Virus record (IMG/VR): IMGVR_UViG_3300048823_000073
Span: 1-58,079 of that record
DNA from: a virus
Lineage: Duplodnaviria; Caudoviricetes
Length of the DNA stretch: 58,079 nucleotides
Reading direction: 5' to 3' (one strand)
Shown here: positions 32,819-58,079 of the stretch, piece by piece
How the letters are laid out: each line of letters starts with the position of its first letter
Position numbering within the stretch: position 1 is the first letter of the stretch
The notes under the pieces: generated by a model
The model's database searches: none
What the model saw: only the letters and a program-made list of their open reading frames with translations
What the model was told of the DNA's origin: nothing
Program-made: the position numbers and the translations under genes

Positions 32819-32838
32819 GGCTTACCTTTAAAAGTAAC

Positions 32839-41871: not shown

Positions 41872-42269
41872 CAGCTCGCCACCTGCAACATAATGCTCGT
41901 AAATTTATTGATGAACTCCGACGCGCGCTCGTCTTGCACGGTTTCGGAGTCGCGGAGCTGGACGTTGCCCGTTATATAATAGACCACCGCCATCTGATAT
42001 TGCGGCGCAAGCGCCACTGCCGCTGTTTCCACACCTGCCGAAAAAGAGGGGGGCACGATGCGAGCGATCGACCCTGGATTGCGGGCCACTACCCCCGTAT
42101 AAGTGGCATCAAGGAGAATATCCGGCCGTAGCCGGTTGATTTCAAGGAACGCCAGATTGAGGGACGTAACAATATCGGCGTCGGCGTACCGGTATGGCGG
42201 CCCAACTAAGTCCTGTAGCAGCGTTCGCGTTTCCGCGATGTAGTCTGCAACAGTGTTGAACTGCGCCAT
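41871..42269 (-). CDS. Head completion/adaptor protein
   Basis: R.LLQD.....RY....I...LN.A..EI.RLRPD pattern; directly after capsid. Confidence 0.6.
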   Translation of the reverse strand: MAQFNTVADYIAETRTLLQDLVGPPYRYADADIVTSLNLAFLEINRLRPDILLDATYTGVVARNPGSIARIVPPSFSAGVETAAVALAPQYQMAVVYYITGNVQLRDSETVQDERASEFINKFTSIMLQVAS

Positions 42270-42314
42270 ACCGGCTCTCCGTCAAGGGCTAAGGGTTACC
42301 CTAGAAGGTAACTA

Positions 42315-43310
42315 TCACGCGCCGCCTTGGTTGATGATCGCCTGCGCCAGCGCTTTGCCGTCGAGGGTTTGATATCCGTACACCTGCAAGCCACGGAAGA
42401 CCGTACCGAAGGTGCGCTCGGAGCGGATGGTTTCAACCTTCGTCATCTGACTGGCGAAAGTGAGAGCATGCGGATGGCCCGCATACACCGCGAACTGACC
42501 AGCCGCCAAACCGCCAGCAACGCCGGTGGGGAGCAGATTGCTCACATAGATCGTGAAGCGATCCACCATCCCGAGGCGGCCATTGCGCATCATCGTGATC
42601 TGATCGCCGGACAAATACACCTGGCGCAGCTCGGACCGTTTGATCTGGGTTGCGGCCCAAGTGGGCATGACGACCCAGCGGCCCGACTCTGGGATATTCT
42701 GCTCGTCGAGCGCCTGGCCCAACCGCAGGAGCACGTCGAGAATTTCGACCTGACCAGCGCCGGGGTTGCGGCCGACAGTCGAAATGGGTGCGCCGGTGGT
42801 GCCGAGGTTAATGTTGCCGCTGATCGCACCGGCAGCAAGCCCCTGGTTCGACGCGAGCGCCGTTCCAAGAATGCCGGAGAGCACGTCAACATCGACCTGA
42901 ATTTTCATCTGCTCGGAAGCATCATCCGCCCAGATCGACAACAGGTTGAGGTCGCTCTGGATTTCCATGATGTCATCAACGATGGTGGCGAAATATTTGC
43001 CCTTGTTGATGTAGAGTTCGATGTTGCCACCGGCGGGACGATCGAGCGACAAATCGCCATCGGCCATATAGTTGTTGATGATGATCGTCGGTTTGGTGCG
43101 GATTTTGATCCGGTCACCATAAGCTCTGATCTCGCCTTCATAGTCGGTGTTCGAGATCGCTGTGAGAACAGTCGCCGCGTAGAACTTCTCGATCAATTTT
43201 CCCGACCAGATTTCCGGGATAAAACCAATCGAGGAGTAGTCGGTAGCGGGGCTACCAACAGGGTAAAGGGGTGGAGTCGTAACACCAGAAGCAATTGGAA
43301 AAACAGCCAT
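42315..43310 (-). CDS. Major capsid protein
   Basis: 331 aa; FIPEIWSGKL, NTDYEGEI...GD, P..GRWVV, RGLQVYG. Confidence 0.9.
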   Translation of the reverse strand: MAVFPIASGVTTPPLYPVGSPATDYSSIGFIPEIWSGKLIEKFYAATVLTAISNTDYEGEIRAYGDRIKIRTKPTIIINNYMADGDLSLDRPAGGNIELYINKGKYFATIVDDIMEIQSDLNLLSIWADDASEQMKIQVDVDVLSGILGTALASNQGLAAGAISGNINLGTTGAPISTVGRNPGAGQVEILDVLLRLGQALDEQNIPESGRWVVMPTWAATQIKRSELRQVYLSGDQITMMRNGRLGMVDRFTIYVSNLLPTGVAGGLAAGQFAVYAGHPHALTFASQMTKVETIRSERTFGTVFRGLQVYGYQTLDGKALAQAIINQGGA

Positions 43311-43335
43311 CGGAGGGCCTCATGTGAGAAGAGCG

Positions 43336-44379
43336 TTATCGGATGCGCCCCTCGCCCTGCGCCGTGAAAATTTCAGTTTCACGTTGCTTCTTCAAAGCCG
43401 GGTCATCGCGGTACTTGCCCGCAGTAACATCGGCGTAGAATTGCGAGACTTGGGCACGGGTGATTGTCGGCTTCTCGACGGGGGTGCCACTGCTGGCCGC
43501 TGCCGCTGTCTTAGCTCGGCCCGGCGCCGCAAACTGTTCGAGCCCTGGGCGCTTGCTATCCTGCGTAGGTGGATTACCTGCGGAGGTAACTTCTGTCGCC
43601 TGGCCCGCTGTTGCGGGGGTCGGTGCCGCCTCGTTAGAAACGAAGCCTTTGAAGAATGCGGCCACACGGTTTGCATCGTGGCGTTCGTAGGCGGCATTCA
43701 GTAGATTTCTTCTTATAGCACCCGAAAAAGTATCTGGCAAGTCCAGCCACGAATTAAATTCGGGATCGTTATTCAGTTCTTTCCACTGCGGTACATTCGC
43801 ATCAAGTACAACGTACATTTTTGTTCTGGCGTCATGCGTCACAGTACCGGCTACACCCTGCAACTGGCGCGTGAGACCTTCAATCTGAGCTTTGAGAGAA
43901 GATATTTCCGTAACAAATTCTTCCTTCGCGCGCTTCCCAACCACATCGAGAAACTCTTTCCCGAAGTCATTTTCTTCCTCGGGGGACACGAAGCGCTGGG
44001 GAGCGTTGGTCTGCTGTTGGGGGGCGTGAGGGGCGGACTCCATCTCAGCGATCAACCGATGCAGATTACTTATTTCGGTGGATAACTGCTGCTGCTGGGC
44101 GGCGGATTGATCGTAGCGCCCCTTCATCGAATTGTATTTATGCTCCCAACCGTCACCCGCCGGATCAACGGGCCTCGGGGTTATCGGAGCCTCTTTAGCG
44201 GCAGGGGCCGGAGTTACCGGGGGGGCTGCTGGGTCTTTGGGCGGGTCTTTGGGTGAAGTCTCGCCGGGAGCAAACGTCGCTTTGTGTAGCTCGGTGGCTC
44301 TGGCAGCTTGGGCGCGGACGGCTGCGGGGACGCTGACACTCGGGTCAATACGATCGGCAGGCGGGGTCAAATCGGGCAT
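43336..44379 (-). CDS. Capsid scaffolding protein
   Basis: Directly upstream of the capsid gene; WEHKYNSMKGRY coiled coil; ends AQGEGRIR. Confidence 0.75.
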   Translation of the reverse strand: MPDLTPPADRIDPSVSVPAAVRAQAARATELHKATFAPGETSPKDPPKDPAAPPVTPAPAAKEAPITPRPVDPAGDGWEHKYNSMKGRYDQSAAQQQQLSTEISNLHRLIAEMESAPHAPQQQTNAPQRFVSPEEENDFGKEFLDVVGKRAKEEFVTEISSLKAQIEGLTRQLQGVAGTVTHDARTKMYVVLDANVPQWKELNNDPEFNSWLDLPDTFSGAIRRNLLNAAYERHDANRVAAFFKGFVSNEAAPTPATAGQATEVTSAGNPPTQDSKRPGLEQFAAPGRAKTAAAASSGTPVEKPTITRAQVSQFYADVTAGKYRDDPALKKQRETEIFTAQGEGRIR

Positions 44380-44412
44380 TGGGCTTCTCCTGGCTGGCCG
44401 GTACTGGTGCGC

Positions 44413-44679
44413 TTATCGGGCACGAGTCGGACTAGGTTGTTTGGCTTGCCGCTCTGCACGAGCGGGAAGAGATTTGAATTGGTTGTAAAGTTGAACCAGA
44501 GATTGCGCTCGCCCATGAGTGATAAGGGCCATCTCTGGTTCGGATTGAACGGCGGCTACGCATGAGGCGGAGACGTGAGCCCAGAATGCCGCCATGAACT
44601 CCTGCCACGCGATAGGACTCGCATGGGAGAGATCATGAGCGGTATCGAGGAACTTCTCCAACTCATTCACCGAACTCAA
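44413..44679 (-). CDS. Hypothetical head-module protein
   Basis: Small helical ORF before the scaffold gene. Confidence 0.55.
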   Translation of the reverse strand: MSSVNELEKFLDTAHDLSHASPIAWQEFMAAFWAHVSASCVAAVQSEPEMALITHGRAQSLVQLYNQFKSLPARAERQAKQPSPTRAR

Positions 44680-45242
44680 GCCACTGGTGCTGGCGAAACA
44701 GCGACCGGGACTGGCGAAACAGCGACCGGGGTCGGAGTTGGCGTCGGTTCAACCGGCGGAACCGGCGAAACGGGGGTAGGCGTCGGTGCTGGGGTCGGTG
44801 CTGGGGTCGGTGCTGGGGTCGGTGCTGGGGTCGGTGCTGGGGTCGGAGTCGGCTCCAGTACGATGCTCGGGGGAAGAGGCGGTGGTGTGAACAGTGGCGG
44901 CACTGGAGCCGGGGTTGGTGTTACCGGAGCTGGTGTGCTGGATGGGGCCGGGGGCGTAGCAGACTGCGACGAATTATAGAGCGCCACTAGGTCTGGCGCA
45001 GTCGGCAAAGGGGTAGGTGCCGCAGGCGTGCTCCCCGCTTTCGAGGCGGTCGAGGCCCGCTCCGCAGCGACGAATGTTTTGATCTGGTCGATCGACCAAG
45101 TGTTGCCCGCTCCGCTTGTTGCGCCGTCGTCGATAATCGAATGCAACTCTTCACTCAGCAGATGCACTTCCGACTTATTCGCAGCCATATCCGTGCCGAT
45201 GGCAGTAACGAACGCCTCCAAGCGTTCTACAAAGTCCGTCAT
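44676..45242 (-). CDS. Protein with Pro/Thr-rich tail (PTPA repeats)
   Basis: AGGAG SD; 12-bp tandem repeats at ~44782-44847. Confidence 0.65.
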   Translation of the reverse strand: MTDFVERLEAFVTAIGTDMAANKSEVHLLSEELHSIIDDGATSGAGNTWSIDQIKTFVAAERASTASKAGSTPAAPTPLPTAPDLVALYNSSQSATPPAPSSTPAPVTPTPAPVPPLFTPPPLPPSIVLEPTPTPAPTPAPTPAPTPAPTPAPTPTPVSPVPPVEPTPTPTPVAVSPVPVAVSPAPVA

Positions 45243-45346
45243 AATATTCTCCTAGCTAGGGGTGGTTACCTTGGAAAGTAACTTTTACAAAGGCTCTATA
45301 GCACCACTACTGCCGACGCGCAAGAATTACTTGCGAGAGTAACCGA

Positions 45347-46471
45347 CTATGCAACGACCAAATTTATAAGTGCGGCATCAGCGCCCTTCCCATTTGCGGC
45401 AGCTATGACGAACTGGTACGTGCCCGCTGTAGCAGGTGTGCCGGTGATGGCCCCGGTGGCGGTATTAATCGAAAGCCCCGATAGTCCCACCGGAAACTGC
45501 GCCGAATAACTCGTTGGAGATTGGGTGGCGGTGATCTGATAATTATAGGCGACGCCATGAGTGGCCCCGGGCGCATTGTAAGCGTTCGTGATCACTGGCC
45601 GCTGCGCATCATTTGGCGAGCCAAGATACCAGCCAATATCCGCGATCGCTAAGTTATTCCCGGCGAACCCCTGCTGCCAATAGGCCACAAGGCATTGGTC
45701 GGTCTGGTGTAATTGGGAGCCAGGACCGGCCATGCTGGCGAGATTGACGCCGTTAACGCCCTGCGGGCGAACGAAATAGCCGATGAGGTTATTGTTGTGG
45801 TCAAGGACTTCCATCAAATTGAAGGCGGGGTCTGTGGTCCCATTACCCGCCAAATATGAGGTATTGGCGATGGTGTACCAACCATTCGCCGTGACTGCCG
45901 CAAATGGCGTAACGTAGGAATTTAGCCAATAATTCATGGCGCCCGCATCGCCACCATACGAAAACCCAATATTCACCGTACCGGCTATCGTGACATAGAA
46001 ATCTATGCACGCCTCTAATGAGTAATTCGCGCCGGTGTCCGGGCTCATGTCCAGTTCAAAAGCGATATAAGTTGGGGCAATGGGGGGTGCCCAAGCGCCC
46101 GTTCCTGTCGCCTGTATCCACATCGTTATCGACTGAGTGAACCGGCCTGGGTATGGGTATTGTGTAGTGACGAAATCCCCGGAGGCCGTGTTCCCATAGT
46201 TCATCCCGAACATTAGGTCATAGGCGCTCCCGTCCGGGCCAGTTACAACGGCGAAATTGTTACCCCCCAGAGGAGGCGCGGGGAGAACTCCGACCGGGCT
46301 TGCAGCCCCAACCGCATATTGTGCAATCGTAGCTGGCGGAGCTGTATATTGGAATACCTGACCCGGCCCGAGGTTTGTGCCCGTAGCGAAATTCTGCAAC
46401 CATTGCCAGTTAAGGGGAGGCGCCGCCGTCCCCGCCAATAACGCACGCTTTCGGGCCGTCAACGAAGTCAT
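45347..46471 (-). CDS. Putative virion decoration protein with C-terminal Ig-like (He_PIG-type) domain
   Basis: YNYQITAT..PTSYSA..P.GLSINTATGAITGTP..AGTY. Confidence 0.7.
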   Translation of the reverse strand: MTSLTARKRALLAGTAAPPLNWQWLQNFATGTNLGPGQVFQYTAPPATIAQYAVGAASPVGVLPAPPLGGNNFAVVTGPDGSAYDLMFGMNYGNTASGDFVTTQYPYPGRFTQSITMWIQATGTGAWAPPIAPTYIAFELDMSPDTGANYSLEACIDFYVTIAGTVNIGFSYGGDAGAMNYWLNSYVTPFAAVTANGWYTIANTSYLAGNGTTDPAFNLMEVLDHNNNLIGYFVRPQGVNGVNLASMAGPGSQLHQTDQCLVAYWQQGFAGNNLAIADIGWYLGSPNDAQRPVITNAYNAPGATHGVAYNYQITATQSPTSYSAQFPVGLSGLSINTATGAITGTPATAGTYQFVIAAANGKGADAALINLVVA

Positions 46472-46488
46472 TGAAATTACACTCCACT

Positions 46489-47076
46489 CTAAACTAATGT
46501 CGCAGCTTCCAAGGCAACATTCGTGCCCCCGTTATTCAACCAAGAAATTGTAAGGGTTTGCCCGGCACTCGCCGCGTTATAGGTGATTGTGTATTCTCCT
46601 TGGGAACTTCCAGATAAAGAAGTGTCCACATACGGTGCGGCGCTCCCGTCGCTCAATGTCGCGGTCAGCATCCCGTTGCAGTTGTAGGTAGAGACATAAA
46701 TGGTTAGTGTGCGAGGCGTTGTACCGGCCGGAACAGTAAAGGATAGCCCCGTGCCGGTTCCGGCTTGTACATAAATGCCGTTCGCCTCTGCTGTGGCGGC
46801 GCTGTTGGGCGCCCCGTTAGTCCACGTAAAGGTGACTGGATTTCCGCCGTAATATGAAAGACCCGCCCCGACTCCGATGGCGTTACTGATTTTACCCCCG
46901 CCTGTCGAGCTGTCAGTGAACCCGGGCGCGACGCCGCCGAACCCCCACGACGCCCAATCTGTGATACCCAACGCAGTTAAATTGTAGTTCCCAGCAGGGG
47001 TTGCAAAGGCCCCGGAAAGTGCGCCCGCGATTGGGTTATTCGAGAGGCGCGATAAATATGCCCGCCTTCGAGCCAT
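46489..47076 (-). CDS. Beta-rich hypothetical protein, possibly carbohydrate-binding
   Basis: Gly/Thr/Ser-rich beta-sandwich-like sequence. Confidence 0.55.
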   Translation of the reverse strand: MARRRAYLSRLSNNPIAGALSGAFATPAGNYNLTALGITDWASWGFGGVAPGFTDSSTGGGKISNAIGVGAGLSYYGGNPVTFTWTNGAPNSAATAEANGIYVQAGTGTGLSFTVPAGTTPRTLTIYVSTYNCNGMLTATLSDGSAAPYVDTSLSGSSQGEYTITYNAASAGQTLTISWLNNGGTNVALEAATLV

Positions 47077-47090
47077 TACGGATGGCACTA

Positions 47091-47480
47091 CTAGGGCACC
47101 CCGATAAGCGTTAATGTAACGGCCGAACCTTGGGCCACGGGAATCCCGACAGTGCCAGAGCGCACCTTGAGATAGCTGATCCCGAGCCATTGCACGGGGC
47201 TACTCAAGACGACCACCTGCGAAGCCGCAACGATGGATGTAACTTCCGTACCAGCGTCAGTGTACAACTCAAAATAGTTGACCCCATCGACCGAGGCTTG
47301 GTAGCTCAATCCTGCCGCAGTCCATCCAGCAGGCACCAGAATGCCAAAAAGTCTGGTAGTCCCGAGAGCAACGGGGCCAGAGAGCGACTGGCCGCTGGCA
47401 ATCGCAGCAGAGAATAATTGAGCCGGTCCCCCGCTTGCGAATACCTCCGCAATCTCTCTACCGTCTGTTGTTAGTCCCAT
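47091..47480 (-). CDS. Hypothetical structural protein
   Basis: IASGQSLS...PAGWTAA.LSYQAS.DG pattern. Confidence 0.6.
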   Translation of the reverse strand: MGLTTDGREIAEVFASGGPAQLFSAAIASGQSLSGPVALGTTRLFGILVPAGWTAAGLSYQASVDGVNYFELYTDAGTEVTSIVAASQVVVLSSPVQWLGISYLKVRSGTVGIPVAQGSAVTLTLIGVP

Positions 47481-47481
47481 C

Positions 47482-47667
47482 TTATTTCCCTTTGCGCGTG
47501 GCGCCCTTGTGGAAATTCGGACCGCCGGGGGCAGCGCCCTTTTTGCGCGCTATCGCCCCGATAACCCCGCCGGGCACGCCTTGTGCCTTGAGTTGGGCAG
47601 CTCTGCCGCCCTCCCCGAGTTTGTTGCTCTTGCCGTGGAAAGAGCCAGACTTCTTAGTGCTCGCCAT
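47482..47667 (-). CDS. Small Lys/Gly-rich basic protein
   Basis: 61-aa ORF starting immediately after the palindrome at 47671. Confidence 0.6.
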   Translation of the reverse strand: MASTKKSGSFHGKSNKLGEGGRAAQLKAQGVPGGVIGAIARKKGAAPGGPNFHKGATRKGK

Positions 47668-47689
47668 AACTTACCTACGAAAGTAACTG

Positions 47690-48121
47690 TTAGCTGGCGG
47701 TCTTGAGCACCGCGTAGAGTGTCACCGCAGGCGCCAGAACGTTCGTAACGATGCCCTTGAACATCTGGCTCGTGCCAGTCGCCAAGGTGAGCGTACCAGT
47801 AACGGTGACACCGTTCGTAGGGCCAGCGGTAAACGTGGCTGCGCCCGAATTTAGGTTCTGGACAATCAAGTCGAAAGACGACCCAACTTGTGCATTCGGG
47901 ATCGCCGCGATGATATTCGCCGCCGTGTCAAGCGTCGGTGCCGCAGTGGTGCCCCCTGAGAAGGTGACGATGCCATTAATCAGCGCAGCAGCGAGGAGCG
48001 CTGGGGTAAGGCCAGAACCAGCAGGGGTAAGAGCGAACGAGTTCGCGAGCACGGCTTCGCTGGCGAGAAGCATTTCTGCGGCAGTTTCGGAACCGGGGGG
48101 AGACGCAAATTGTGAAGGCAT
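47690..48121 (-). CDS. Putative capsid decoration/structural protein
   Basis: TLDTAANIIAAIPNAQVGSSFDLIVQN pattern; Ala/Thr-rich. Confidence 0.55.
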   Translation of the reverse strand: MPSQFASPPGSETAAEMLLASEAVLANSFALTPAGSGLTPALLAAALINGIVTFSGGTTAAPTLDTAANIIAAIPNAQVGSSFDLIVQNLNSGAATFTAGPTNGVTVTGTLTLATGTSQMFKGIVTNVLAPAVTLYAVLKTAS

Positions 48122-48159
48122 GATGTGTTTCTTTCTCTAGCTTGAAGTTTGGGAACTCG

Positions 48160-48384
48160 TTAAATATTCCCGGTTCGGACGCCCCCAAGGGACCATGAAG
48201 TGGACACGTCAGGGAACAAGTCTTTCCCCGCCGTATCATGCTCCGCATGAGCCTTCTTCGAGTAGTCACGCGAGACCCGGCGCTGGATTTCCCCGCCGCC
48301 GGTAATCGTTGTCATTGCGCTCATGCAGGGCAAGTCTTCGATCTTGTGACCTTTGCCGCCTGCGCCTTGTCGGTCGATCTTCAT
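48160..48384 (-). CDS. Hypothetical protein
   Basis: GGAG SD after the palindrome at 48400. Confidence 0.5.
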   Translation of the reverse strand: MKIDRQGAGGKGHKIEDLPCMSAMTTITGGGEIQRRVSRDYSKKAHAEHDTAGKDLFPDVSTSWSLGGVRTGNI

Positions 48385-48418
48385 TTTACTCTCCCATACT
48401 TACCTATGGAGGTAAGTC

Positions 48419-48985
48419 TCAGGCCATCCCGTACATTTCGGCATATTGGAGGTTCAAATCGCCCACGAGAGTACCGGCGTTGCCAGTGATGACAACGACG
48501 ATCGCGGCGCTATCGGCCATAGCAAGCGCTTGAGCAGCGGTCGTGCCCTGGTGGGTCGTGCCAACGACAGTACCCTCATTGAGAAAGAGCTGCGTGTTGA
48601 CGCCCGTGCGAACGATGCAGCCATTCATGTTCCAGCCGCCGCCGCTCTGGGCGACAACGCCCGTGGTCAGGAGCGTGGTGCCCCCAACGACAGCCTGCCC
48701 CACAACCGGATTGATCGGGTTGAGGATCGCCTTGAGGGTCTTATTGTCGCCGTTGACACCAAACAGGCCCGATGCTTGGAACGCCAGTTCGGCAATTTCA
48801 CCCACCAGAGGGCCAAAGATGTTGGCGGGCACCGTCAAGATTGCCAGCACATTGTCATTGGTAATCGAGCCGGGGGCACTCGCACCCGTAATTCGTTGGA
48901 TAGAAAACTGCGAGTTCATCGCGGCACGATTTAGGTTAAGCGTCGGGCTCGCACTGTCCGCGTCTACGATTGGATTAAGAGACAT
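48419..48985 (-). CDS. Putative structural protein
   Basis: GAGG SD; beta-rich, 188 aa. Confidence 0.6.
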   Translation of the reverse strand: MSLNPIVDADSASPTLNLNRAAMNSQFSIQRITGASAPGSITNDNVLAILTVPANIFGPLVGEIAELAFQASGLFGVNGDNKTLKAILNPINPVVGQAVVGGTTLLTTGVVAQSGGGWNMNGCIVRTGVNTQLFLNEGTVVGTTHQGTTAAQALAMADSAAIVVVITGNAGTLVGDLNLQYAEMYGMA

Positions 48986-49037
48986 AGAAATTTCCTCAAA
49001 TTGGACTTGTGATCCCGAGAACTTTTATCTCAAGAGA

Positions 49038-49259
49038 TTATTGCGATTTCTTAGCGGTAACGCCCGACTCCATCGTGCGCGCGGAGCCCTTGCCAAACAT
49101 ATGCCCCTTGCCCCCGCTCGGGAACTTGCCGCTGTTACCCGCGTCTTCATGCGAAGTGCGGCCTTCAACCGGGGGTCCGGCATGCTGCGGGCCGAACATT
49201 TTCGTGGTGCCGCCCTTGGCGAACTCAACCTTTGGGGGATTGCCCTCAACTTTAGGCAT
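49038..49259 (-). CDS. Small Gly/Lys-rich protein
   Basis: GGAG SD; FAKGG motif. Confidence 0.6.
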   Translation of the reverse strand: MPKVEGNPPKVEFAKGGTTKMFGPQHAGPPVEGRTSHEDAGNSGKFPSGGKGHMFGKGSARTMESGVTAKKSQ

Positions 49260-49331
49260 GATGTTTCTCCATCTAAGAAGTTAGAAGTTACCTTTACAAG
49301 TAACTAGCATACTCGCTCTACTTACGCAAGC

Positions 49332-49553
49332 TTACTTACGTTTGGAGTAGCTGCCACTTTTTTCGGAAATCTTGCCCTTGCCCTCTTTGGCATTGCCTTT
49401 GGACCCAACCTTGCCGCCGCGCTTGAACGCCGGAGCGCCACCACCACCGGGAGCCCCCATTGTCATTGCATCGCCAGCAGCATCCGGGTCAACCGGGGGA
49501 GCTTTCGATTTGCCTGCATGTTTACCGCCAAATGGTTTCTTCATAATAATCAC
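49332..49553 (-). CDS. Small Gly/Lys-rich protein
   Basis: Follows the portal gene; FKRGGKV motif. Confidence 0.6.
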   Translation of the reverse strand: MIIMKKPFGGKHAGKSKAPPVDPDAAGDAMTMGAPGGGGAPAFKRGGKVGSKGNAKEGKGKISEKSGSYSKRK

Positions 49554-49562
49554 TCTTTCTCT

Positions 49563-51671
49563 CTAGTGTCCCCCAGCGATGCGCGTTCTCGGTCCCGTGT
49601 CCTGGGTGACATTGGACCCTGGTTGATTCCCCTGAGCTTGCTGGGCTTGGTCCCCGCCTTGCGAATGCCCAACTTGACCCTGCTGCTGGGCCGTCTGCTG
49701 CGCCTGCTTCTGCTGGGCTTCCATCTGGTCGTCTGTGGGCACGATCTGCTCGCCAGGGAGCCCGAGCGTATCCGCCACCGGCCTTAGTATGGCTGCGCGA
49801 CCTTTCGGCCCGATAATGCCCATGTCGATCGGGTTCGCCGTAGCCGCCAAGAACTCCAATTGACGGGAGCGCTCGGTTTCCTTCTGGATCGCGACACCGA
49901 CGCCCGAAACTTGAATTTCCTCTTCGCCCGTCAAAAGCTGCGAGTCATCAGTCAGCATCACCATATCGTAGAGCCCGTGCAGCGCCGGGTCGATGACTTC
50001 TCGGTCAATGTTGGCTGCGACGGTCTGTAAAATCTTACTAGCATTGCTCATAAGCATCGAGAGCCCCGAGGCAGTGCGCCCCACGGCCCCCGCTTGGCCG
50101 CCGGTCATGTATCTGGGCACGGCGCTGTGCTCGTCGGCCATGTTCACAAACTGCGAATAAACCGTGAGAAGCTCTTGCGCATTGCTGTTGGGCTGAAAGA
50201 AGTTGATCGCGGGCTGCTGGTTGTTCCCCATCGGGTCGTTGCGCGTGTGCCAGCGCTTCCACGGGTATAGGTCTTCGCCATCTTCGTCGTCAGACAATCT
50301 ATCGTCGTTGACTTCAACCTGCGGCCCCGAGGCCATCGCCATGTTGTTGACCAATGCCCGGAGCGCCGAATTGGAGGCGTCTTGGATGTCCGCAAGGATA
50401 TCGGGGAGCCCGTTTCCAACTGGCGTTCCGGGCACCTTCTCAAAGCTCGTCACATAATATTGGTGACGCTTGCGTGGGGAAGGCGCAAGTTGAGCTTTGA
50501 TAACGTAGGAGCCAATCAACCACGCATTGATGAAATAGTCCCGCACAGGGTCGTCTATTACCTCTGGAGGTAACCCGTAGTCCAGTAGCATCATGCCCTG
50601 GACAGTACCTTGGAACTCCAGACAGTTGATCAATCCCGATCGGTTCATTCGCGGGTCTTCCCGGCTCTCATAGACCGCTCTGGAAGAGTCCGTTATATCC
50701 CAATCATCACTTATCCCGCCGGTCCCATAGCTCGAAAGCACTTCACGAACCGCGTCGTGATTGTACCCGGGCAGGTCGAGAAGATCATTCAATTCCGACC
50801 GTGTAAGCCGGATACGCTCGATGCAGTTCGCGTTCTCGATGTCGGATACGCCTGGCGTCCAGTAAAGATCAAAAGGCGAAACTCTTTGCCAACAGAGCTT
50901 GGGAGTATCTGTCGAGACCGCTTTGGGGGGTGCCCCGGGCTTGTCGCTTTTCCAAACAACCTCGGGGAGTATCCGAACAGTCGGCCCCTTGATGGCGGCA
51001 TACGGGAAAAGTGGCAAATCAACAATGAACTCGGCTAGGGCTTTATAGAACCCGCCCTCGGTCAAAATCTCATCGAGCTTCTCTTCGGCAATGCGAGCCT
51101 GCTCGGCCGCTTTCTTCTTCGCAGCCTGGCGCGCGGCCTCCGTGAGCATCGTGAACCTATCACGAATTGCGCCAGGATCGGCTGGCTGCCCCGCCTGCAT
51201 CGCACCCGTTATTTCCGAGTCAATAAGCTGTTGTATGGCTGTATGAATTGCCTGCGGCAATTTGGGGTCTTGATCCGGCTTAAGCCCCCATGGGCGATCT
51301 GTCCCCAGATAAACATCACGTAAGAGCGAACTGGCGCCACGCGACTTGATCGCCGTGATCCGCGCGAAAATCTCCGAGCCGCCAAACTTGCGTATCTCAC
51401 GAAGCTGATCCGGATCGTATTGTCCGTTGAATGATCGCATCGCACGCAGCAAGCGCTCCGCCCAACCGGACAGCGGATTGTCCCGATGGAGGCGCATAAG
51501 CTCGTATTGCGATCTGATGTACCCCGCGAGCCGGTCGATATCTGTGGGGGTGTAAGTCTGTGCGCGCGCGGAAGCTGCCGCTTGGGCGGCCGCTTTATCC
51601 ATGTCCGCATTGGACATAGCTCTTAATATGCCACCACTTGGGATTGCTTGCGGCATTGAATTGGTGTACAC
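49563..51671 (-). CDS. Portal protein (start may be the ATG at 51656)
   Basis: ~700 aa; RVSPFDLYW.P, G.GLPD.L.D.Q...N...R...NN, GRTASGLSMLM; Gln-rich tail. Confidence 0.9.
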   Translation of the reverse strand: MYTNSMPQAIPSGGILRAMSNADMDKAAAQAAASARAQTYTPTDIDRLAGYIRSQYELMRLHRDNPLSGWAERLLRAMRSFNGQYDPDQLREIRKFGGSEIFARITAIKSRGASSLLRDVYLGTDRPWGLKPDQDPKLPQAIHTAIQQLIDSEITGAMQAGQPADPGAIRDRFTMLTEAARQAAKKKAAEQARIAEEKLDEILTEGGFYKALAEFIVDLPLFPYAAIKGPTVRILPEVVWKSDKPGAPPKAVSTDTPKLCWQRVSPFDLYWTPGVSDIENANCIERIRLTRSELNDLLDLPGYNHDAVREVLSSYGTGGISDDWDITDSSRAVYESREDPRMNRSGLINCLEFQGTVQGMMLLDYGLPPEVIDDPVRDYFINAWLIGSYVIKAQLAPSPRKRHQYYVTSFEKVPGTPVGNGLPDILADIQDASNSALRALVNNMAMASGPQVEVNDDRLSDDEDGEDLYPWKRWHTRNDPMGNNQQPAINFFQPNSNAQELLTVYSQFVNMADEHSAVPRYMTGGQAGAVGRTASGLSMLMSNASKILQTVAANIDREVIDPALHGLYDMVMLTDDSQLLTGEEEIQVSGVGVAIQKETERSRQLEFLAATANPIDMGIIGPKGRAAILRPVADTLGLPGEQIVPTDDQMEAQQKQAQQTAQQQGQVGHSQGGDQAQQAQGNQPGSNVTQDTGPRTRIAGGH

Positions 51672-51695
51672 CCGTTACCAGCGAAGGTAACTAGC

Positions 51696-51724
51696 CTTAT
51701 AGAAACTTGTAGTGGCATTGTCAA
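51696..51724 (-). promoter_or_regulatory. Putative promoter of the virion operon
   Basis: TTGACA(51724-51719)-N17-TATAAG(51701-51696); palindrome 51675-51690 at the inferred +1. Confidence 0.65.
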
Positions 51725-51733
51725 GAGAGTAAC

Positions 51734-52198
51734 ATGGCGACCCCCCAAGATACTGCTACTCCCCAAGAAAAGCTGCGCATGTTCATCACGGACCTTGCGC
51801 AAGACATCGTTCCCTTAGAGGAACTCTTGGTCAAGTACAGTTACTCGATCGGCTTTTTCACCCGTGTAAATGCGCTTCCGGCTTTCCAAAAACGTCTCTC
51901 CGAAGAGCGGACGGCGTGGCTGGCTGTAGACAACAGAGCGAAGCGCGTCAAATTCCAGGCTGGCGCAGCGGTAGAAAACCTTCTCCCGGAATTAGGCGGC
52001 ATGTTCCTCGACAGAACGCTACCCGCAAGGGATCGTCTCGAAGCAATCAAGCATCTGTCCAAGCTTGCGGAGTTTGGCGGGGATAAAGCGGCAACGGGCG
52101 GCGAGAGTGTCAGCATCATAATCAATCTGGGAGAGGACAAGAAGCTGGCGTTCTCCCATGCCTTGCCTGAAAAGGTAATAGAGCATTCCGATGCCTAA
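51734..52198 (+). CDS. terS: Putative terminase small subunit
   Basis: Helical 154-aa protein overlapping the TerL start; C-terminal VSIIINLG strand. Confidence 0.65.
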   Translation: MATPQDTATPQEKLRMFITDLAQDIVPLEELLVKYSYSIGFFTRVNALPAFQKRLSEERTAWLAVDNRAKRVKFQAGAAVENLLPELGGMFLDRTLPARDRLEAIKHLSKLAEFGGDKAATGGESVSIIINLGEDKKLAFSHALPEKVIEHSDA

Positions 52199-53636
52199 CA
52201 TAAACTACACGGCGTCGCCCACTTGCGCAAAATTTATGAAATCCGAGAGCTTCGGACGGCTCATCGCAGGGCCGGTCGGCAGTGGCAAGACGACTTCGAC
52301 AATCATGGAACTGATACGGCGCTCGTGTGAGCAAACGCCCGGCAAGGACGGCCTGCGCCACACAAGATTTGCAATCGTCCGGCAGACACTCTCGCAGTTG
52401 CGCCAGACCGTCTTGAAAGACATTCAAGACACCCTAGGCAACGCGGCAGACTGGCGCGTCTCCGAGAGCACTGTCTACGTCTCCATGGGGGATGTTCGAT
52501 CGGAATGGCTGCTTTTGCCCCTTGAAGACATCCAAGACCAGAGACGGTTGCTCTCGTCGCAGCTCACAGGGGCGTGGATTTCGGAAGCGATCGAGATCGA
52601 CGTAAACCTAGTCGCTGCAATCTCCGGCCGGTGCGGGCGCTATCCCTCCGGCAACATGGGCGTGCCGACATGGTTCGGGATGCTGGCCGACACGAACATG
52701 CCCAGCGAGGGAAGCCCCTGGTGGCAGTTCATGATCGCAGCGCCGGTAGATTGGCAGATGTTCTATCAGCCAAGTGGCTTAAGCTCGCTGGCCGAAAACC
52801 TCAATCATCTCGTCCAGACCCCCGAAACGCTAAAACTCCCGATCGACCATCCCGATCGAATTGCCCAAGGCCGCAAATATTACGAGCGCTTGGAGCGCAA
52901 CAACAATGCGGATTGGGTGCAGCGCTATGTGCATGCGAAGTTCGGGTCTGACCCTTCGGGCTCCGCAGTATTTCGGGCGTCGTTCAAACGCTCATATCAT
53001 GTGGTGGACAAGCTGGAACCCGTACCGGGCAGGCTTTTGGTTGTCGGACAGGATTTCGGACGTGACCCTTGGGCGATCATCACGCAGCTCGATCACCGTG
53101 GGAGGTTCTTAGTTCTCGAAGAAGTTCCCGCCGATGATATTGGGCTCCAGCAGCACATTCGCGGAGGTCTTCGTCCGGCACTCTTCCAAGAACGCTACCT
53201 CAACCGGCCCGTCATCATCGTGGGCGACCCAGCGGGCATATCGAAAAACTCGCATTACGAAGAGAACAGCTTCGACCTGCTCAAAGCAGAAGGTCTTCAC
53301 GCGATGCCCGCCCAAACGAACCGGCTGGAGCCCCGGCTGCGCGCCGTGGAGCATTTTATGCTGGGACAGGTGCAGGGCGACCCTATGTTTGTGATCGACG
53401 GGCAGCGGTGCCCGAAGTTGGTCCAAGCGCTCGATGGCGGCTATCGCTTCGGACACACGAAAGTCGGGGAGAAAAAGCCTTCGCCGGACAAAAATTCATT
53501 CTCCCACATAGCTGATGCTCTCCAATATTCAGCCCTCGGCTGTAGTGGGGAGATGCACGGCTATCTAGTGGGGCGCGTCATGAACAAAGGTAAGGAGCGC
53601 CGCCGCCCGCAATTCAGCTCTCGCGCGTGGACTTGA
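52191..53636 (+). CDS. terL: Terminase large subunit
   Basis: GPVGSGKT, AIVRQT, WISEA, DTN; nuclease GQDFG and SHIADALQY. Confidence 0.92.
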   Translation: MPNINYTASPTCAKFMKSESFGRLIAGPVGSGKTTSTIMELIRRSCEQTPGKDGLRHTRFAIVRQTLSQLRQTVLKDIQDTLGNAADWRVSESTVYVSMGDVRSEWLLLPLEDIQDQRRLLSSQLTGAWISEAIEIDVNLVAAISGRCGRYPSGNMGVPTWFGMLADTNMPSEGSPWWQFMIAAPVDWQMFYQPSGLSSLAENLNHLVQTPETLKLPIDHPDRIAQGRKYYERLERNNNADWVQRYVHAKFGSDPSGSAVFRASFKRSYHVVDKLEPVPGRLLVVGQDFGRDPWAIITQLDHRGRFLVLEEVPADDIGLQQHIRGGLRPALFQERYLNRPVIIVGDPAGISKNSHYEENSFDLLKAEGLHAMPAQTNRLEPRLRAVEHFMLGQVQGDPMFVIDGQRCPKLVQALDGGYRFGHTKVGEKKPSPDKNSFSHIADALQYSALGCSGEMHGYLVGRVMNKGKERRRPQFSSRAWT

Positions 53637-53927
53637 TCTCTTACGCGACTGGTTCACTTCCCGCGTGACCGCTTCTAAGTGATCCGGGCACACGCACAAA
53701 CTAAAGTGGCAATTGTGATCGCGGTGATGGCCGGGCGGGCAGGGCTTCTTCCCAAGGACATCATGCGAGAACCGATGCGCCCGAACGCTCTTACTCTTAT
53801 ATGAGAACGTGCCATACCACTTTTTATTCCCCCGGCCCCGGCTTCGCGCGCCGGTCCAGAACCAGCATCCGTTGGGGAGGATATCGACGAAACTCATGAA
53901 ACGTGCAATGTCAGCCTCGTCGCACAT
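53565..53927 (-). CDS. HNH endonuclease
   Basis: GCWFWTG, YGTF, AHRFS, DHNC...CVCPDHLEAVT..N. Confidence 0.85.
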   Translation of the reverse strand: MCDEADIARFMSFVDILPNGCWFWTGARSRGRGNKKWYGTFSYKSKSVRAHRFSHDVLGKKPCPPGHHRDHNCHFSLCVCPDHLEAVTREVNQSRKRSSPRARAELRAAALLTFVHDAPH

Positions 53928-53994
53928 TATTTAAACCACTCCATAATGTGAAAGACGATAACATAGGCCATCGCCAAGCATACAGCATACTCCA

Positions 53995-54465
53995 CTATGC
54001 AACCTCCACACGCGCAGCCACGGGGGCATTGGGCTGATCTTGGTATTTCCCGCGATAAGGGAGTATCGTAGGATGATCTAGCCACTCGAACTTGACCTGG
54101 CACAATGGGGCTCCAGCCTCAAATTCTATGCGGTAGCCCCCGTGGTTCACTAGCTCGACCGTCAACCACCCTTCCCATCCCGGATCGAGATGCGTGTTAA
54201 AGACGCTCATGAACGCGCGTGCGTGCGTAGATTTGTCCATCACAGACCCGCAAATATTATCGGGCAGGACGAACCGCTCCATTGTGCTCGCAAGCGCCGC
54301 CTCACCCGAAAGCAAGACCAAATCCTGCGCTATCCGGCAATCATACGAACATGCCGAAAGCCCGAATGACCGGCCCCCAACGACACCGCGCTCCACGAAG
54401 GGGGATATGAGGGGCCAATCCCCTTGCGCCAAACGCCGGATGGTTTGTGCTGAAAGCACACTCAT
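53995..54465 (-). CDS. dcd: dCTP deaminase (trimeric dUTPase superfamily)
   Basis: SFGLS..SYD, DKST.AR, DPGWEGWLTVELVN, YRGKYQDQ. Confidence 0.85.
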   Translation of the reverse strand: MSVLSAQTIRRLAQGDWPLISPFVERGVVGGRSFGLSACSYDCRIAQDLVLLSGEAALASTMERFVLPDNICGSVMDKSTHARAFMSVFNTHLDPGWEGWLTVELVNHGGYRIEFEAGAPLCQVKFEWLDHPTILPYRGKYQDQPNAPVAARVEVA

Positions 54466-54588
54466 GTCACCCCCCCAAAAAGTTACTTCCAAAGGTACTT
54501 TAATTCCAAAGATCGTAAGCGAAAATAAAGGTGCTGGCCCGAACCCAGACGAGCCACTCCACTACGAGGAGGGTGCAGATCCGGAACT

Positions 54589-54876
54589 TCATGCTGGTTC
54601 ATCCTCTAAAGCTGGCCGGGGCACATCTCGATTGGTTTGCCGATGTAATGCGTCATGCTGCGCCTGCGCCAAAGCGGAAATGAGCCCGATTGTATTGTGG
54701 GATGATAAATCCCAACCAATCTCTCTGCCCGGCGTGATGTAGGCTACTGCAACGGCGACATATTCCCCGCGCATAGCCTCCGCCAAAGCCCCCCTCAAAA
54801 TCCTAACTACTTCCTCGTCGGGTTCACCAGGCGGTAGGGCGGCGCCGCCATAAATAGCCACAATATTGTCGTTCAT
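54589..54876 (-). CDS. Hypothetical protein
   Basis: 95-aa ORF. Confidence 0.55.
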   Translation of the reverse strand: MNDNIVAIYGGAALPPGEPDEEVVRILRGALAEAMRGEYVAVAVAYITPGREIGWDLSSHNTIGLISALAQAQHDALHRQTNRDVPRPALEDEPA

Positions 54877-55016
54877 GGGTGCTCACCCCACCAGTTCAAA
54901 TATGTCTTGGCGTAAGTCTTCGCCAACCAAATGATCGCCCAGCCAATGAACACGGCCATGACCGCAGACAGAGCCAACTCACCCCAAAAATTCTTCATAT
55001 TACCTCCAAAGGTAAC

Positions 55017-55280
55017 TTAGAGCGCTGCCAACTGTGTCGTCAGCGTCGCAATGTTATTGCTGATGATCACAATCGCGGCGTTGAGCATCGTCGCAGAGTC
55101 CGCCACCGAAAATGGCACCTGCTGTCCGATGTTCGTGGGCGTCGCGCCCGTGAGCAGACTGATCCCAACAATCTGCGCATTGTTGGCAACTGCCGATTGG
55201 AGCTGCGCTGCAAGCGTTTGGAGCGCTTGTATCTGCGCCGCGAGCTGCCCGGCCAGTATCCCTTGCGCGACCGTCGCCAT
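55017..55280 (-). CDS. Hypothetical protein
   Basis: AGGAG SD; ends at the palindrome at 55000. Confidence 0.6.
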   Translation of the reverse strand: MATVAQGILAGQLAAQIQALQTLAAQLQSAVANNAQIVGISLLTGATPTNIGQQVPFSVADSATMLNAAIVIISNNIATLTTQLAAL

Positions 55281-55585
55281 TAGCTGATCTCCTCGGGCAT
55301 GGCCTGGTTCTTACCGTCCGAGGTAACTGGCTCGTTCTTCCAGCTACGGGGCACGATGTTGATCTTGGTTGTCTGCCACGCACCAACAAACCTGAGATCG
55401 GGCACCATGCCCAGCGATATCCACAGCCGCCCGCTCCACAGCAACTTGATCCGTTCGCGCACGCTCAACTTAAGAAGCGTGTTGATCCCCACGAGCTGCC
55501 TGTCCTTCGGAGCATCCTCGGGGAACAGCGCCGATACCGGCTCTGCGTAACCAATCTTGATCTCGATATCTCCAATGTTCGCCAC
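55280..55585 (-). CDS. Hypothetical protein
   Basis: Coupled ORF. Confidence 0.55.
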   Translation of the reverse strand: MANIGDIEIKIGYAEPVSALFPEDAPKDRQLVGINTLLKLSVRERIKLLWSGRLWISLGMVPDLRFVGAWQTTKINIVPRSWKNEPVTSDGKNQAMPEEIS

Positions 55586-55860
55586 TACGCGCTCTCTTTC
55601 TCTAACTCGACTACTTTAAGTTTTCCGACTCTCATTGCTCCAACGCGACCCGGCTCAACGAACCAGCCCGCACCCTGCAAATTCAGGTCTTCCACACTCA
55701 CAAGCGGGTGTGACGTTCCACCCCCGCGCATGATCTTCACAAATCCATTCCCCCACCCCGCATACAGCTCCTCCCCCCGCCGGAACAATTTGCACTGACG
55801 ATAAACGCCCTTGCTACGGAGGATGCACTGCGCGTCTTCAATAATGTGGAAATAATCCAT
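55585..55860 (-). CDS. Hypothetical protein
   Basis: Coupled ORF; ATG at 55860. Confidence 0.55.
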   Translation of the reverse strand: MDYFHIIEDAQCILRSKGVYRQCKLFRRGEELYAGWGNGFVKIMRGGGTSHPLVSVEDLNLQGAGWFVEPGRVGAMRVGKLKVVELEKESA

Positions 55861-55903
55861 CAAACTCTCATGTTGTCCTCTGATGTTACTCTCTGAGGTT
55901 ACC

Positions 55904-56233
55904 TCAAGAGGTAATCTCTTCATCGGCAGGAATAACATCTCCCCCTACAGGGTCGTAGTTATCAAAGGGAATGTTATCGTGCCGATTGCGCCGATTGTGC
56001 AGCAACCACTCAAGCACTTGATCCTCAAAATAATAGATCAAGCGTCCGACCTTCACATAATCTGGACCTGTCCTCTTGACCCGCCAGTCGTTAAGCGTGA
56101 ACGGCGATATCTCCAATAGCTTAGTGACTTCCAAGGGAGTGAGCAGGCGCATGCGTTCACGCAGATGACGCCCCAGCTCGTCGCCGTCCACGAGCGTTTG
56201 CACGCTCTCTTTCCCCTTTATTACGTTCGCCAT
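55904..56233 (-). CDS. Excisionase/AlpA-like HTH protein
   Basis: LLTPLEVTKLLEISPFTLNDWRVKRTGPDYVKVGRLIYY; next to the integrase remnant. Confidence 0.85.
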   Translation of the reverse strand: MANVIKGKESVQTLVDGDELGRHLRERMRLLTPLEVTKLLEISPFTLNDWRVKRTGPDYVKVGRLIYYFEDQVLEWLLHNRRNRHDNIPFDNYDPVGGDVIPADEEITS

Positions 56234-56301
56234 CTTATACTCCCAATCTATACACACCATACACTATAAAGTTACCTTGTCAAGTAATAAAATGGTAATA
56301 A

Positions 56302-56762
56302 TCAGATAATAATTTGATCATAGTAATCTGCAAGTTGCTGGAGGGCAGCGCGATGCTCGGGGATGTAGCGAGTTCGGTTGTAGACACTCTCGATCGGATC
56401 GTGCAGGTGCGTGTGACCGAGCACGTTTTGATGCGGCGGGCCTCCGCATAGATCGTCATGAGGGTGGCGAGGGTTAGGGCGGGCAGCGCTGGACTATGGG
56501 AGCCCTCTCGAAAGGCGTTTCGGGCTTCCTGGGCCTTCTGACGGGCTTGGGCGAGACTTGTTTGGGGGTAGGTGCCTAGGGGGATGCGCTTGCGGGTGTG
56601 ACTGTGGGTTGTCAGCAGGCTCCAGATCGGATCGTGGTGCGAAGCGCGGAGCACTAAGCCGGGGCACGCCCCGTCCCGGAGTTCTAAGCGGGCGCCTTGT
56701 GGGTTCTTGGCGAGGGCACGCGCGATCGAGGCGGTGATGAGGGGGGTTATGATCTTGGGCAT
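56302..56762 (-). pseudogene. int: Tyrosine integrase with a large internal deletion
   Basis: Arm-binding domain (LRDGACPGLVLR...RIPLGTYPQTSLAQARQKA) joined out of frame to the integrase C-terminus LGH...VYNRTRYIPEHRAALQQLADYYD (56421-56302). Confidence 0.85.
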
Positions 56763-57225
56763 TTGTGGGGGGTCTTTTGGGGATTTCAGGGGGTTAAAAG
56801 TTCTCAGATAGTGGAAGAGCACGTTTGGGCAGTTTTAAGGGGTGTTTGGTTGGATTTCAAGGGGTTAGAGGTTTTTAGGTTGTGGGGCTTAGAGGGGGTT
56901 TTATGCGGGCCGGTCAGATATCCGAAGTGGGTTTTAGAGGGGGTGAGGTACTCGATGGGGTTATCCGGGGGACTTACGATCGTTTGAGTTGTCCGGGTTT
57001 TAGAGGGGGGTGAGGTGCTTGGTGCTATTTGGGTATAATCTGGTGCTATTGCGAATTTGTAGGTTCTATATGTGCGACCCCTAAAAGGGCCACGCCCCCC
57101 ACCGCCACCCTTGGTCCATATGGGGCGCCGGTCTTACCTCGAAAGGTAACAGCATATCCCCTCCCCGGGGCTCTATTGTGGAAGGGAAACCTCCCCCGGC
57201 CCAAAGGTTCCAGGGTCACGCATCA

Positions 57226-57542
57226 GGGCTCCATCTTCGCCCAAGAACCGCAGTCATGCCAGACTGACACGAGGCCAGCGGTCCGATTGTCTTACAATCA
57301 GCCGGAAGCGACGCCTCGCTAAAGTGGAAACCCCGCGATGAACGGGACAGAACCCAAGTCTTACCTTGGGGCTGGCATGGTGGCAAAATAGCAGACGGGA
57401 AGCAAAACCCCTGCGAATATGCCGCGTTACTCTGCAAGAACCCCCCTAACTAGGGTTGCTCGCCATGTTTACAGGGCGGCAAGCGGTGCAAATCCGCGCG
57501 GCGGGGTTCTTGCACGGTAACACTGGAAAACCCATAAGGGTT
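57226..57542 (+). ncRNA. Candidate large structured RNA or leader
   Basis: About ten consecutive stems; 12-bp perfect stem 57433-57444/57503-57514; T-loop GCGG-TGCAAAT-CCGC; potential pseudoknot. Confidence 0.55.
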
Positions 57543-57571
57543 AACCCTGTTACCTTTCAAGGTAAACGACA

Positions 57572-57862
57572 ATGGGAAAAACACTTAGAGCCGCGAAGCT
57601 TGCGCAGTCTTTCGTTCGCTTGGAACGTAAAAGCGTGACAAGTTTAGAGATTGCCGCACTAGGGCGTAAGCACGAACGCGAAATCAAGCGTGATGCTTAC
57701 TATGCGGCACGGCGCGAAATGATCGAATTACTGGACAAGCAAATGGATGCGGTGACGCGCGGTTTGCTTGCAACTAAGGTTGCGCCTGGCACCGCATACG
57801 GTGCGCGTGATCTGCAAACCAAAAAGGCTCGCGCTCTCTCGATGAACTCTTGGCGCGCATGA
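57572..57862 (+). CDS. Hypothetical basic protein
   Basis: ATG directly after the palindrome at 57550. Confidence 0.6.
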   Translation: MGKTLRAAKLAQSFVRLERKSVTSLEIAALGRKHEREIKRDAYYAARREMIELLDKQMDAVTRGLLATKVAPGTAYGARDLQTKKARALSMNSWRA

Positions 57863-57909
57863 GTTTCGATTGGGTTATCTCCGTCGGAATTTGTTTGCTC
57901 ACTTGGGCA

Positions 57910-58079
57910 GGCGCTTGATTATTGGTTGCGACCTTGGCATGGAAATTGCTAGGCCGCAACCAATTGTGGCAAAATTATGTGGATTTACACAATCGGCGCT
58001 TGATTATTGGTTGCGACCTTGGCATGGAAATTGCTAGGCCGCAACCAATTGTGGCAAAATTATGTGGATTTACACAATC
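57910..58079. repeat. Two 85-bp tandem units, continuing into 1-196 on the circle
   Basis: GGCGCTTGATTATTGGTTGCGACC... at 57910 and 57995. Confidence 0.9.

Follow-up and report, generated by a model that had tools for sequence, protein, structure and literature searches.

A densely folded, probably transcribed non-coding segment in an uncultured peat phage

Main finding

The window, by which we mean the whole stretch of DNA analysed (58,079 nt), carries at 57226-57542 a segment that is best read as part of a fast-evolving, structured and untranslated 5′ leader of a small early unit, the ORF of which lies at 57572-57862, with the upstream ~260 nt of the leader accumulating as a stable RNA. We give this reading a rough probability of 0.4. 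The upstream 220-260 nt are found in environmental RNA libraries and the following ORF barely is; the 3′ end, the strand and any regulatory consequence are inferred. If real, the segment would represent an expressed, structured RNA of several hundred nucleotides, encoded by a soil phage that has not been cultured and unmatched in the libraries of RNA families, and a cultured Rhizobium phage with the same slot would provide a way to test long folded leaders. The RNA itself is a lead and no discovery.

The phage and its relatives

The IMG/VR record is that of a complete virus of 58,079 bp with terminal repeats present. The phage is of podovirus type and encodes an SU10-type portal, a family A DNA polymerase, a DUF927 primase-helicase and an SNF2 helicase, together with a large terminase, a dCTP deaminase and a virion protein of 2168 aa. 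Judged by TerL, its nearest named relatives are four near-identical Rhizobium phages, the RHph_TM3_14A group (53% identity), for which a literature search gave no paper naming them. The terminase of a 61-kb contig from a Bradyrhizobium assembly is 61% identical, and those of 14 IMG/VR fragments are 52-64% identical. The Rhizobium phages and the Bradyrhizobium contig among these terminase relatives suggest that the host clade is probably alphaproteobacterial. The phage was found in peat and permafrost metagenomes, with part of the stretch present in 20 of the 22 listed runs; 16 DNA runs contain 29-96% of its sampled words. Coding density is ~89-90% both in the window phage, where it rests on crude gene calls, and in RHph_TM3_14A, and gaps of 400-500 nt are therefore unusual in either.

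Two proteins elsewhere in the genome, one with a dATP/dGTP diphosphohydrolase N-terminal domain (6631-7029, + strand) and the dCTP deaminase (53995-54492, - strand), suggest manipulation of the nucleotide pool by the phage. DNA modification is possible, and no PurZ-like protein was present among the ORFs scanned.

Organization of the unit

The earlier note had placed the segment at the head of the early strand. It lies instead in a small unit of its own, apart from the main early operon, since an ORF, a terminator-like hairpin, the 85-nt repeats and the promoter-like sites at 640-733 intervene. The features of the unit and its surroundings are as follows.

56280-56822, - strand: ORF with the arm-DNA-binding domain of a P4-type integrase (Pfam E 7.5e-12)
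56777-57010, no strand assigned: array of three to five direct repeats, each 15-18 nt long and rich in G, immediately upstream of the arm-domain ORF
57067-57133, + strand: conserved block shared with RHph_TM3_14A (MAFFT), upstream of the structured segment
57134-57149, no strand assigned: palindrome copy 1, 16 nt, without a start codon behind it
57550-57565, no strand assigned: palindrome copy 2, ending 6 nt before the ATG of the ORF at 57572-57862
57572-57862, + strand: ORF of 96 aa, of no known family, the sole ORF of the unit
57892-57913, + strand: terminator-like hairpin with a T-rich tail, which would end the unit
57910-58079 and 1-200, no strand assigned: tandem 85-nt repeats with internal palindromes, followed by two shorter degenerate copies
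640-667 and 706-733, + strand: promoter-like sites with 11/12 and 9/12 matches

The 5′ end of the unit, or a part close to its promoter, probably lies in the conserved block. Upstream of the segment, no promoter of the sigma-70 type was called on the + strand, and promoter assignment failed on both strands. The promoter-like sites further on sit in two copies of a ~66-nt unit, just before the first early gene at 786. The 96-aa ORF has no Pfam or PHROG match and no relatives among IMG/VR viral contigs. The hairpin at 57892-57913 is the sole terminator-like site on the + strand of 56200-58079, and no intrinsic terminator was found in 57150-57570. An antiterminator leader, one of the options raised in the earlier note, comes close to the preferred reading. 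As the terminal repeat of the record sits inside the 85-nt repeats, both the circular join and the copy number of these repeats are uncertain.

The 5′ part of the leader is predicted to pair with the region around the second palindrome (57203-57216 with 57544-57557, P 0.86-0.88). A scheme in which the 5′ segment of the leader frees the ribosome-binding site of the ORF was rejected, the site being paired in every construct modelled; such a translational switch is without support because the modelled accessibility of the site is the same with or without the leader.

Predicted fold of the segment

On the + strand, 57226-57542 folds at -135.3 kcal/mol (RNAfold) as compared with -107.0 ± 5.4 kcal/mol for 100 dinucleotide shuffles, none of which was as good (z -5.27), and the minimum free energy structure is also the centroid. 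The dense structure proposed from the sequence alone is therefore borne out for the segment, except for its 5′ end up to 57250, which belongs to a region (57150-57250) without unusual folding on either strand. The longer stretch 57150-57571 has a z of -3.93. The main helices have predicted pair probabilities of 0.92-0.99, and the fold is comprised of the following elements.

57150-57250, + strand: 5′ segment, with C slightly in excess of G (GC skew -0.06 to -0.27) and z +0.39
57255-57379, + strand: domain 1, an 8-bp closing helix (57255-57262/57372-57379) round three hairpin arms
57380-57425, + strand: hairpin 2, 46 nt, 6+4+3 bp, P 0.97-0.99, z -3.9 on + and -1.95 on -
57426-57521, + strand: domain 3, an 18-bp stem, a four-way junction and three short hairpins
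57529-57542, + strand: small hairpin, 5 bp, P 0.95

The folding signal on the + strand comes from domain 1 (z -3.62, and -4.16 on the - strand), hairpin 2 and domain 3 (z -5.41, and -4.53 on the - strand). The complementary segments listed in the earlier note are all in the sequence, at or within 1-2 nt of where it put them, and several of them lose to competing helices: the local hairpins ACCGC/GCGGT, CAGTC/GACTG and AGCGA/TCGCT have mean P of 0.00, 0.004-0.04 and 0.01, respectively. The helices of domain 1 have P 0.64-0.99, and the pairing that had been taken for a possible pseudoknot, CATGCCAG/CTGGCATG, is its ordinary nested 8-bp closing helix (P 0.96-0.99), for which no pseudoknot is needed. 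An alternative fold of domain 1 with the local hairpins is just 2.2 kcal/mol worse, and a switch or a pseudoknot in this domain is possible for that reason.

The stem of domain 3 (57426-57444/57503-57521) consists of 6+12 bp with a single C-C mismatch and closes three hairpins. To this extent the cloverleaf described earlier stands, and its T-like register does not. In one possible register, the 7-nt loop resembles a T-loop at most positions; the hairpin that presents it, GCGG/CCGC, has a mean P of 0.01, and forcing this register costs 2.9 kcal/mol in domain 3. The T arm of a tRNA has 5 bp with a 7-nt loop and stacks directly on the acceptor stem, whereas the proposed one has 4 bp, lies 5 nt away from the closing stem and reaches a P of 0.01 in a model that leaves tertiary stabilization aside. 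The stem is followed by ACTGG and not by CCA. ARAGORN returned no tRNA or tmRNA gene in the whole window, and no tmRNA match was obtained in Rfam either. A tRNA mimic, as had been suggested, finds no support.

The G-U pairs, which had been thought to favour the + strand, do not discriminate, as there are 3 among 92 pairs on the + strand versus 6 among 88 on the - strand of the core (57251-57525), and the - strand folds as well (z -6.15 versus -5.45). As a control, 1158 intervals of 200 nt across the genome, on both strands, were each compared with 20 shuffles, which gave a mean z of -0.32 (sd 1.26); 11 of the intervals had z<=-4, among them the one over the 3′ half of the candidate at 57501-57700 (z -4.83), and the interval 57401-57600 had z -3.93. 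Equal or lower values occur in the repeat/promoter region 1-800 and inside coding genes. The segment folds clearly better than its shuffles, which in this genome is by itself no proof of function. A long near-perfect hairpin was also observed at 50355-50435 (+ strand) within the portal gene (49563-51671, - strand), where the interval 50301-50500, refolded in the orientation antisense to the gene, gave z -5.2 against 200 shuffles.

Coding content, RNA families and homologues

The segment is non-coding. Seven small ORFs overlap 57029-57638, and none of them matched Pfam; six had no PHROG match and the remaining one matched at E 0.045, in keeping with the earlier statement that the region has no convincing ORF. 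A search of Rfam 15 with the whole window gave no match at the gathering score, and within 57155-57570 nothing was found at E<=10, be it a riboswitch, a ribozyme, a C4/IsrK-type, 6S, RNase P or Y-like RNA or one of the large phage-associated RNAs. The nearest weak match is a serC-leader-like hairpin pair at 57083-57154 (E 0.22, 18.8 bits against a threshold of 35). The suggestion of a ribozyme accordingly finds no family in Rfam.

No homologue of the segment was detected by blastn in distant mode against GenBank phages, by blastn and nhmmer in the loci of 14-17 relatives, or by DNA search of five whole viral records, and none turned up in the one Rhizobium phage genome covered. The same search of 401 genomes of Hyphomicrobiales, the order of the relative-bearing Bradyrhizobium genome, gave a single match, which is a host terminator. 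The 96-aa ORF and a 380-aa early ORF gave empty results or chance matches in IMG/VR. Among short probes, a 19-mer from domain 3 had no match, a 15-mer from the T-like hairpin had at least 119 IMG/VR matches of which none extends past 23 nt, and two composite patterns of the conserved block and palindrome returned first no match and then 12 unrelated ones. Single-sequence covariance models of domain 3 and of domain 1 with hairpin 2 (R1 and R2, respectively) recovered only the window itself among the relatives, everything else being at E 0.33 or worse, and nothing in the five viral records; in 151 Hyphomicrobiales genomes there was one match at E 0.0086 per genome, which equals the chance expectation.

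The conserved block and the first palindrome align with RHph_TM3_14A over 85 nt with many identical columns, and no such runs follow downstream (MAFFT). The palindrome of RHph_TM3_14A occupies the same relative place (17676-17691 of its locus, L136), and behind the block comes a 510-nt gap (MN988472 17692-18200) in which no gene is annotated and which reaches to the first + strand ORF of this Rhizobium etli phage. This gap also folds well (z -3.05, 1 of 100 shuffles as good). It has neither sequence nor architecture in common with the window segment, and nothing in it rises above noise in Rfam. What the gaps of the two phages share is their length, their position and a high degree of folding only. 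In RHph_TM3_14A, a - strand gene begins ~100 nt before the conserved block, so the gap there lies in a + strand unit; by analogy, the window segment is provisionally assigned to the + strand.

RNA in peat metatranscriptomes

Four peat metatranscriptome runs, each containing 15-23% of the words sampled from a 1.3-kb query, were mapped over 42000-58079. Two contigs from different studies, both 100% identical to the window, cover much of the segment: a 259-nt contig at 57166-57424 with a depth of 13.6 (run X18) and a 219-nt contig at 57208-57426 with a depth of 5.1 (run X20).

57166-57426, no strand assigned: stretch under the 100%-identical contigs of X18 and X20

In a third run (X17) the bin 57008-57543 had a mean depth of 11.5, so that three of the four runs have signal over the segment, and the fourth (X19) has only a contig at 57778-57997 in this region. 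That contig and a depth of 1.9 in X17 are all that covers the 96-aa ORF. Most of the remaining contigs fall on the structural genes at 42-49 kb and have depths of 2-25; in the same runs, the depths over the segment are similar. Bins from 55400 to 57007 had zero depth in all four runs, as had 51112-51647, and no contig among those listed falls in 53814-57165, although regions without RNA contigs give no evidence of silence.

The segment is probably transcribed, since identical contigs occur in RNA runs and the neighbouring 55400-57007 is without depth. Carry-over of DNA into the RNA libraries is formally possible; the patchy coverage argues against it in any simple form. The two contigs end at 57424 and 57426, at the boundary of hairpin 2 and domain 3. 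Contigs carry neither strand nor true RNA ends. The coincidence is a weak hint of an RNA end, and it could also arise if reverse transcriptase or the assembly stalled at the highly stable 18-bp stem. Contigs over structural genes (45130-45268, 46701-46836 and 48452-49234) bear sequencing-adapter letters at both ends, which points to discrete short RNA fragments there.

Proposed mechanism and a possible role in trans

In the leader model, the unit would be ordered as conserved block, palindrome, ~400-nt leader, second palindrome, 96-aa ORF and terminator-like hairpin, and is flanked on one side by the decayed integrase gene and on the other by the repeats that come before the main early operon. 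Transcription would proceed on the + strand and the transcript would be cut or stopped at the boundary of hairpin 2 and domain 3; a variant is arrest at domain 3 followed by trimming back to hairpin 2. The upstream piece would survive as hairpin 2 shields its 3′ end, and expression of the ORF would be set by the share of transcription, or of intact mRNA, that passes domain 3. The leader would thus act as an attenuator or as a processing control.

Alternatively, the product that matters could be a stable non-coding RNA acting in trans as a decoy, sponge or antisense regulator, comprising 57166-57425, perhaps with domain 3, and released when, for instance, RNase P or RNase III cuts the primary transcript at the long-stemmed, cloverleaf-like domain 3. 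This would account for an upstream piece at the depths of structural genes next to an ORF that is not, for contig ends that coincide with the 5′ foot of domain 3 and for the cloverleaf order of its arms, and fast sequence turnover in a fixed genomic slot would fit a molecule engaged in an arms race. We nevertheless consider it unlikely. Processing would have to be deduced from two contig ends, neither ARAGORN nor Rfam recognizes a tRNA-like, tmRNA, C4, IsrK or other family, the T-like hairpin and the missing CCA speak against a tRNA-like end, and complementarity to the genome is at chance level (best 12-mers E 1.2, palindrome copies aside). Moreover, no reverse transcriptase, Ro-like protein or RNA ligase is encoded among the ~45 ORFs scanned. 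A more far-reaching version holds that the peat phage and the RHph_TM3_14A group share a new, fast-evolving class of abundant phage RNA in a fixed slot behind the conserved start block, of which a ~260-nt piece cut at the foot of domain 3 would act in trans, e.g. by decoying a nuclease of the host or a host defence that senses RNA. This we regard as speculative and quite improbable.

Comparison with known systems

The segment matches none of the systems compared as a family. Immunity RNAs of the P4 and P1 type (seqA/IsrK-like and CI/C4) are processed by RNase P, and Rfam includes models for the seqA/IsrK-like and C4 RNAs. The segment resembles them as an untranslated leader of several hundred nucleotides at the head of an early operon, with a P4-family integrase in its ancestry, internal complementary segments and a short stable leader RNA that would accumulate. 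It differs in having no Rfam match at E<=10 and no repeated target sites elsewhere in the unit, and its probable host clade is alphaproteobacterial and not enterobacterial, so that it is not counted among them. The scheme of an immunity RNA embedded in a leader is that of P4, as described in PMC3632133. The leader of the Gifsy-1 prophage that yields IsrK gives rise to two isoforms, one short and stable and the other a long read-through RNA with the downstream ORF, according to PMC4825925. The likeness to this dual small/messenger RNA lies in a leader that would yield a short stable piece ahead of an ORF; unlike it, the present unit has no terminator between leader and ORF, and there is no sequence or Rfam match.

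The late 6S transcript of lambda and the put RNA of HK022 are 70-200 nt long and end at, or act on, defined terminators. The RNA considered here would likewise be short, structured and plentiful, made where an operon begins and followed by little RNA downstream, but at 260-400 nt it is longer, no intrinsic terminator was found for it and no antiterminator protein was identified. T7-like phages have RNase III processing hairpins between early genes, each of about two helix turns with an internal loop and cleaved in vivo. Domain 3 recalls such sites in its long imperfect stem (6+12 bp, one mismatch), placed between the upstream RNA and the ORF with contigs ending at its foot; unlike them, the stem closes a four-way junction and not a simple hairpin with an internal loop, and its cleavage would be conjectural. 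With tRNA-like structures domain 3 shares a stem that closes three hairpins in cloverleaf order, and it departs from them in the negative ARAGORN result, an 18-bp closing stem, a T-like register with a P of 0.01 and the lack of a CCA end.

A possible integrase remnant beside the unit

The arm-domain ORF has no catalytic domain, and an intact 427-aa integrase aligns with it over residues 11-128 only. Either it is what is left of a lysogeny module since lost, or it has been domesticated as a DNA-binding protein. Neither a C-terminal integrase fragment in another frame nor an intact integrase in one relative (L144) was confirmed, and a search with the integrase N terminus found only prophage integrases of 31% identity, without the RNA. 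The G-rich repeat array between this ORF and the segment has a GC skew of +0.5 to +0.7, and its repeats may be arm-type binding sites.

An adjacent ORF that keeps the arm-binding N terminus of an integrase and nothing more raises the possibility that the segment, too, is functionless sequence left over from a lost lysogeny module, folding by chance and through palindrome halves and transcribed by read-through. Consistent with this, the body of the leader is conserved in no relative and similar z-scores occur within coding DNA. Decay nonetheless appears improbable. Phage genomes that are ~90% coding rarely retain 400-500 nt of junk, and a second phage has a folded gap in the same place; shuffles as good as the native sequence numbered 0/100 for the window leader and 1/100 for the RHph_TM3_14A gap; and no protein remnant is detectable by Pfam, PHROGs or tblastn, in which six-frame ORFs from the loci of 12 relatives gave noise-level matches only.

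The palindrome family and a possible DNA-level element

The palindromes that the earlier note saw bracketing the region do exist at 57134 and 57550, but they are members of a genome-wide family and not private to the segment. The palindrome is 16 nt long, with two 6-nt half sites and a free 4-nt spacer, and is present in 61 copies with at most one mismatch, against 0.04 expected.

2712-2727, 32822-32837, 51675-51690, 57134-57149 and 57550-57565, no strand assigned: example palindrome copies with at most one mismatch

Perfect hairpins of 6 bp with a 4-nt loop number 28 in the genome; 12 are this palindrome and the rest are apparently one-offs, the top ones listed being singletons. Crude gene calls, by which ~89% of the genome is coding, place 28 of the 61 copies between genes. 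RHph_TM3_14A (MN988472) has 36 copies, of which, by its deposited annotation, 15 are intergenic and 10 end 2-6 nt before a start codon. The loci examined of other TerL relatives have 0-1 loose matches each, and a perfect copy occurs in the Rhizobium phage only; the locus of the Bradyrhizobium contig has five copies with up to two mismatches in 18 kb. The idea that the palindrome always precedes start codons was rejected for the window, where a start lies within 1-9 nt of 14 of the 61 copies as compared with 12 ± 3.3 for random positions, so that the test does not discriminate there. No compensatory variants were found, and the sequence of the palindrome itself, not pairing alone, is therefore constrained. 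It could be a family of DNA operators or a hairpin at ribosome-binding sites.

Within the leader, 57361-57370 is a half copy of the palindrome and the foot of domain 3 resembles a copy split by an 84-nt insert, its 3′ side sharing an 11-nt identity with the copy at 1020-1037. Copies and half copies pair with one another and supply part of the folding potential of the segment. The most stable helices (the 12-bp part of domain 3, the 8-bp closing helix and hairpin 2) are not copies of the palindrome, and are long-range and nested.

The 85-nt repeats may be the iterons of an origin, or a partition site. We find it very doubtful that the segment is an element acting at the level of DNA near such iteron-like repeats, that is, a set of protein-binding palindromes or inverted repeats (operator, origin-proximal or cruciform) whose transcripts are incidental, for even though the two strands fold about equally with nearly all pairs Watson-Crick (3 and 6 G-U), the region has two full, one split and one half copy of a sequence-conserved palindrome, the tandem repeats and the G-rich array flank the unit and hairpin 2 has a run of ten bases in common with the 85-nt repeat, that 10-nt identity is at chance level (blast E 18), the strongest helices are nested as in RNA domains and the RNA contigs selectively cover the region.

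The palindrome is enriched at gene junctions, where it is often found, and it may be a more general regulatory signal of this phage group. Contig ends from three metatranscriptome runs fall at 45252-45268, adjoining the palindrome copy at 45266.
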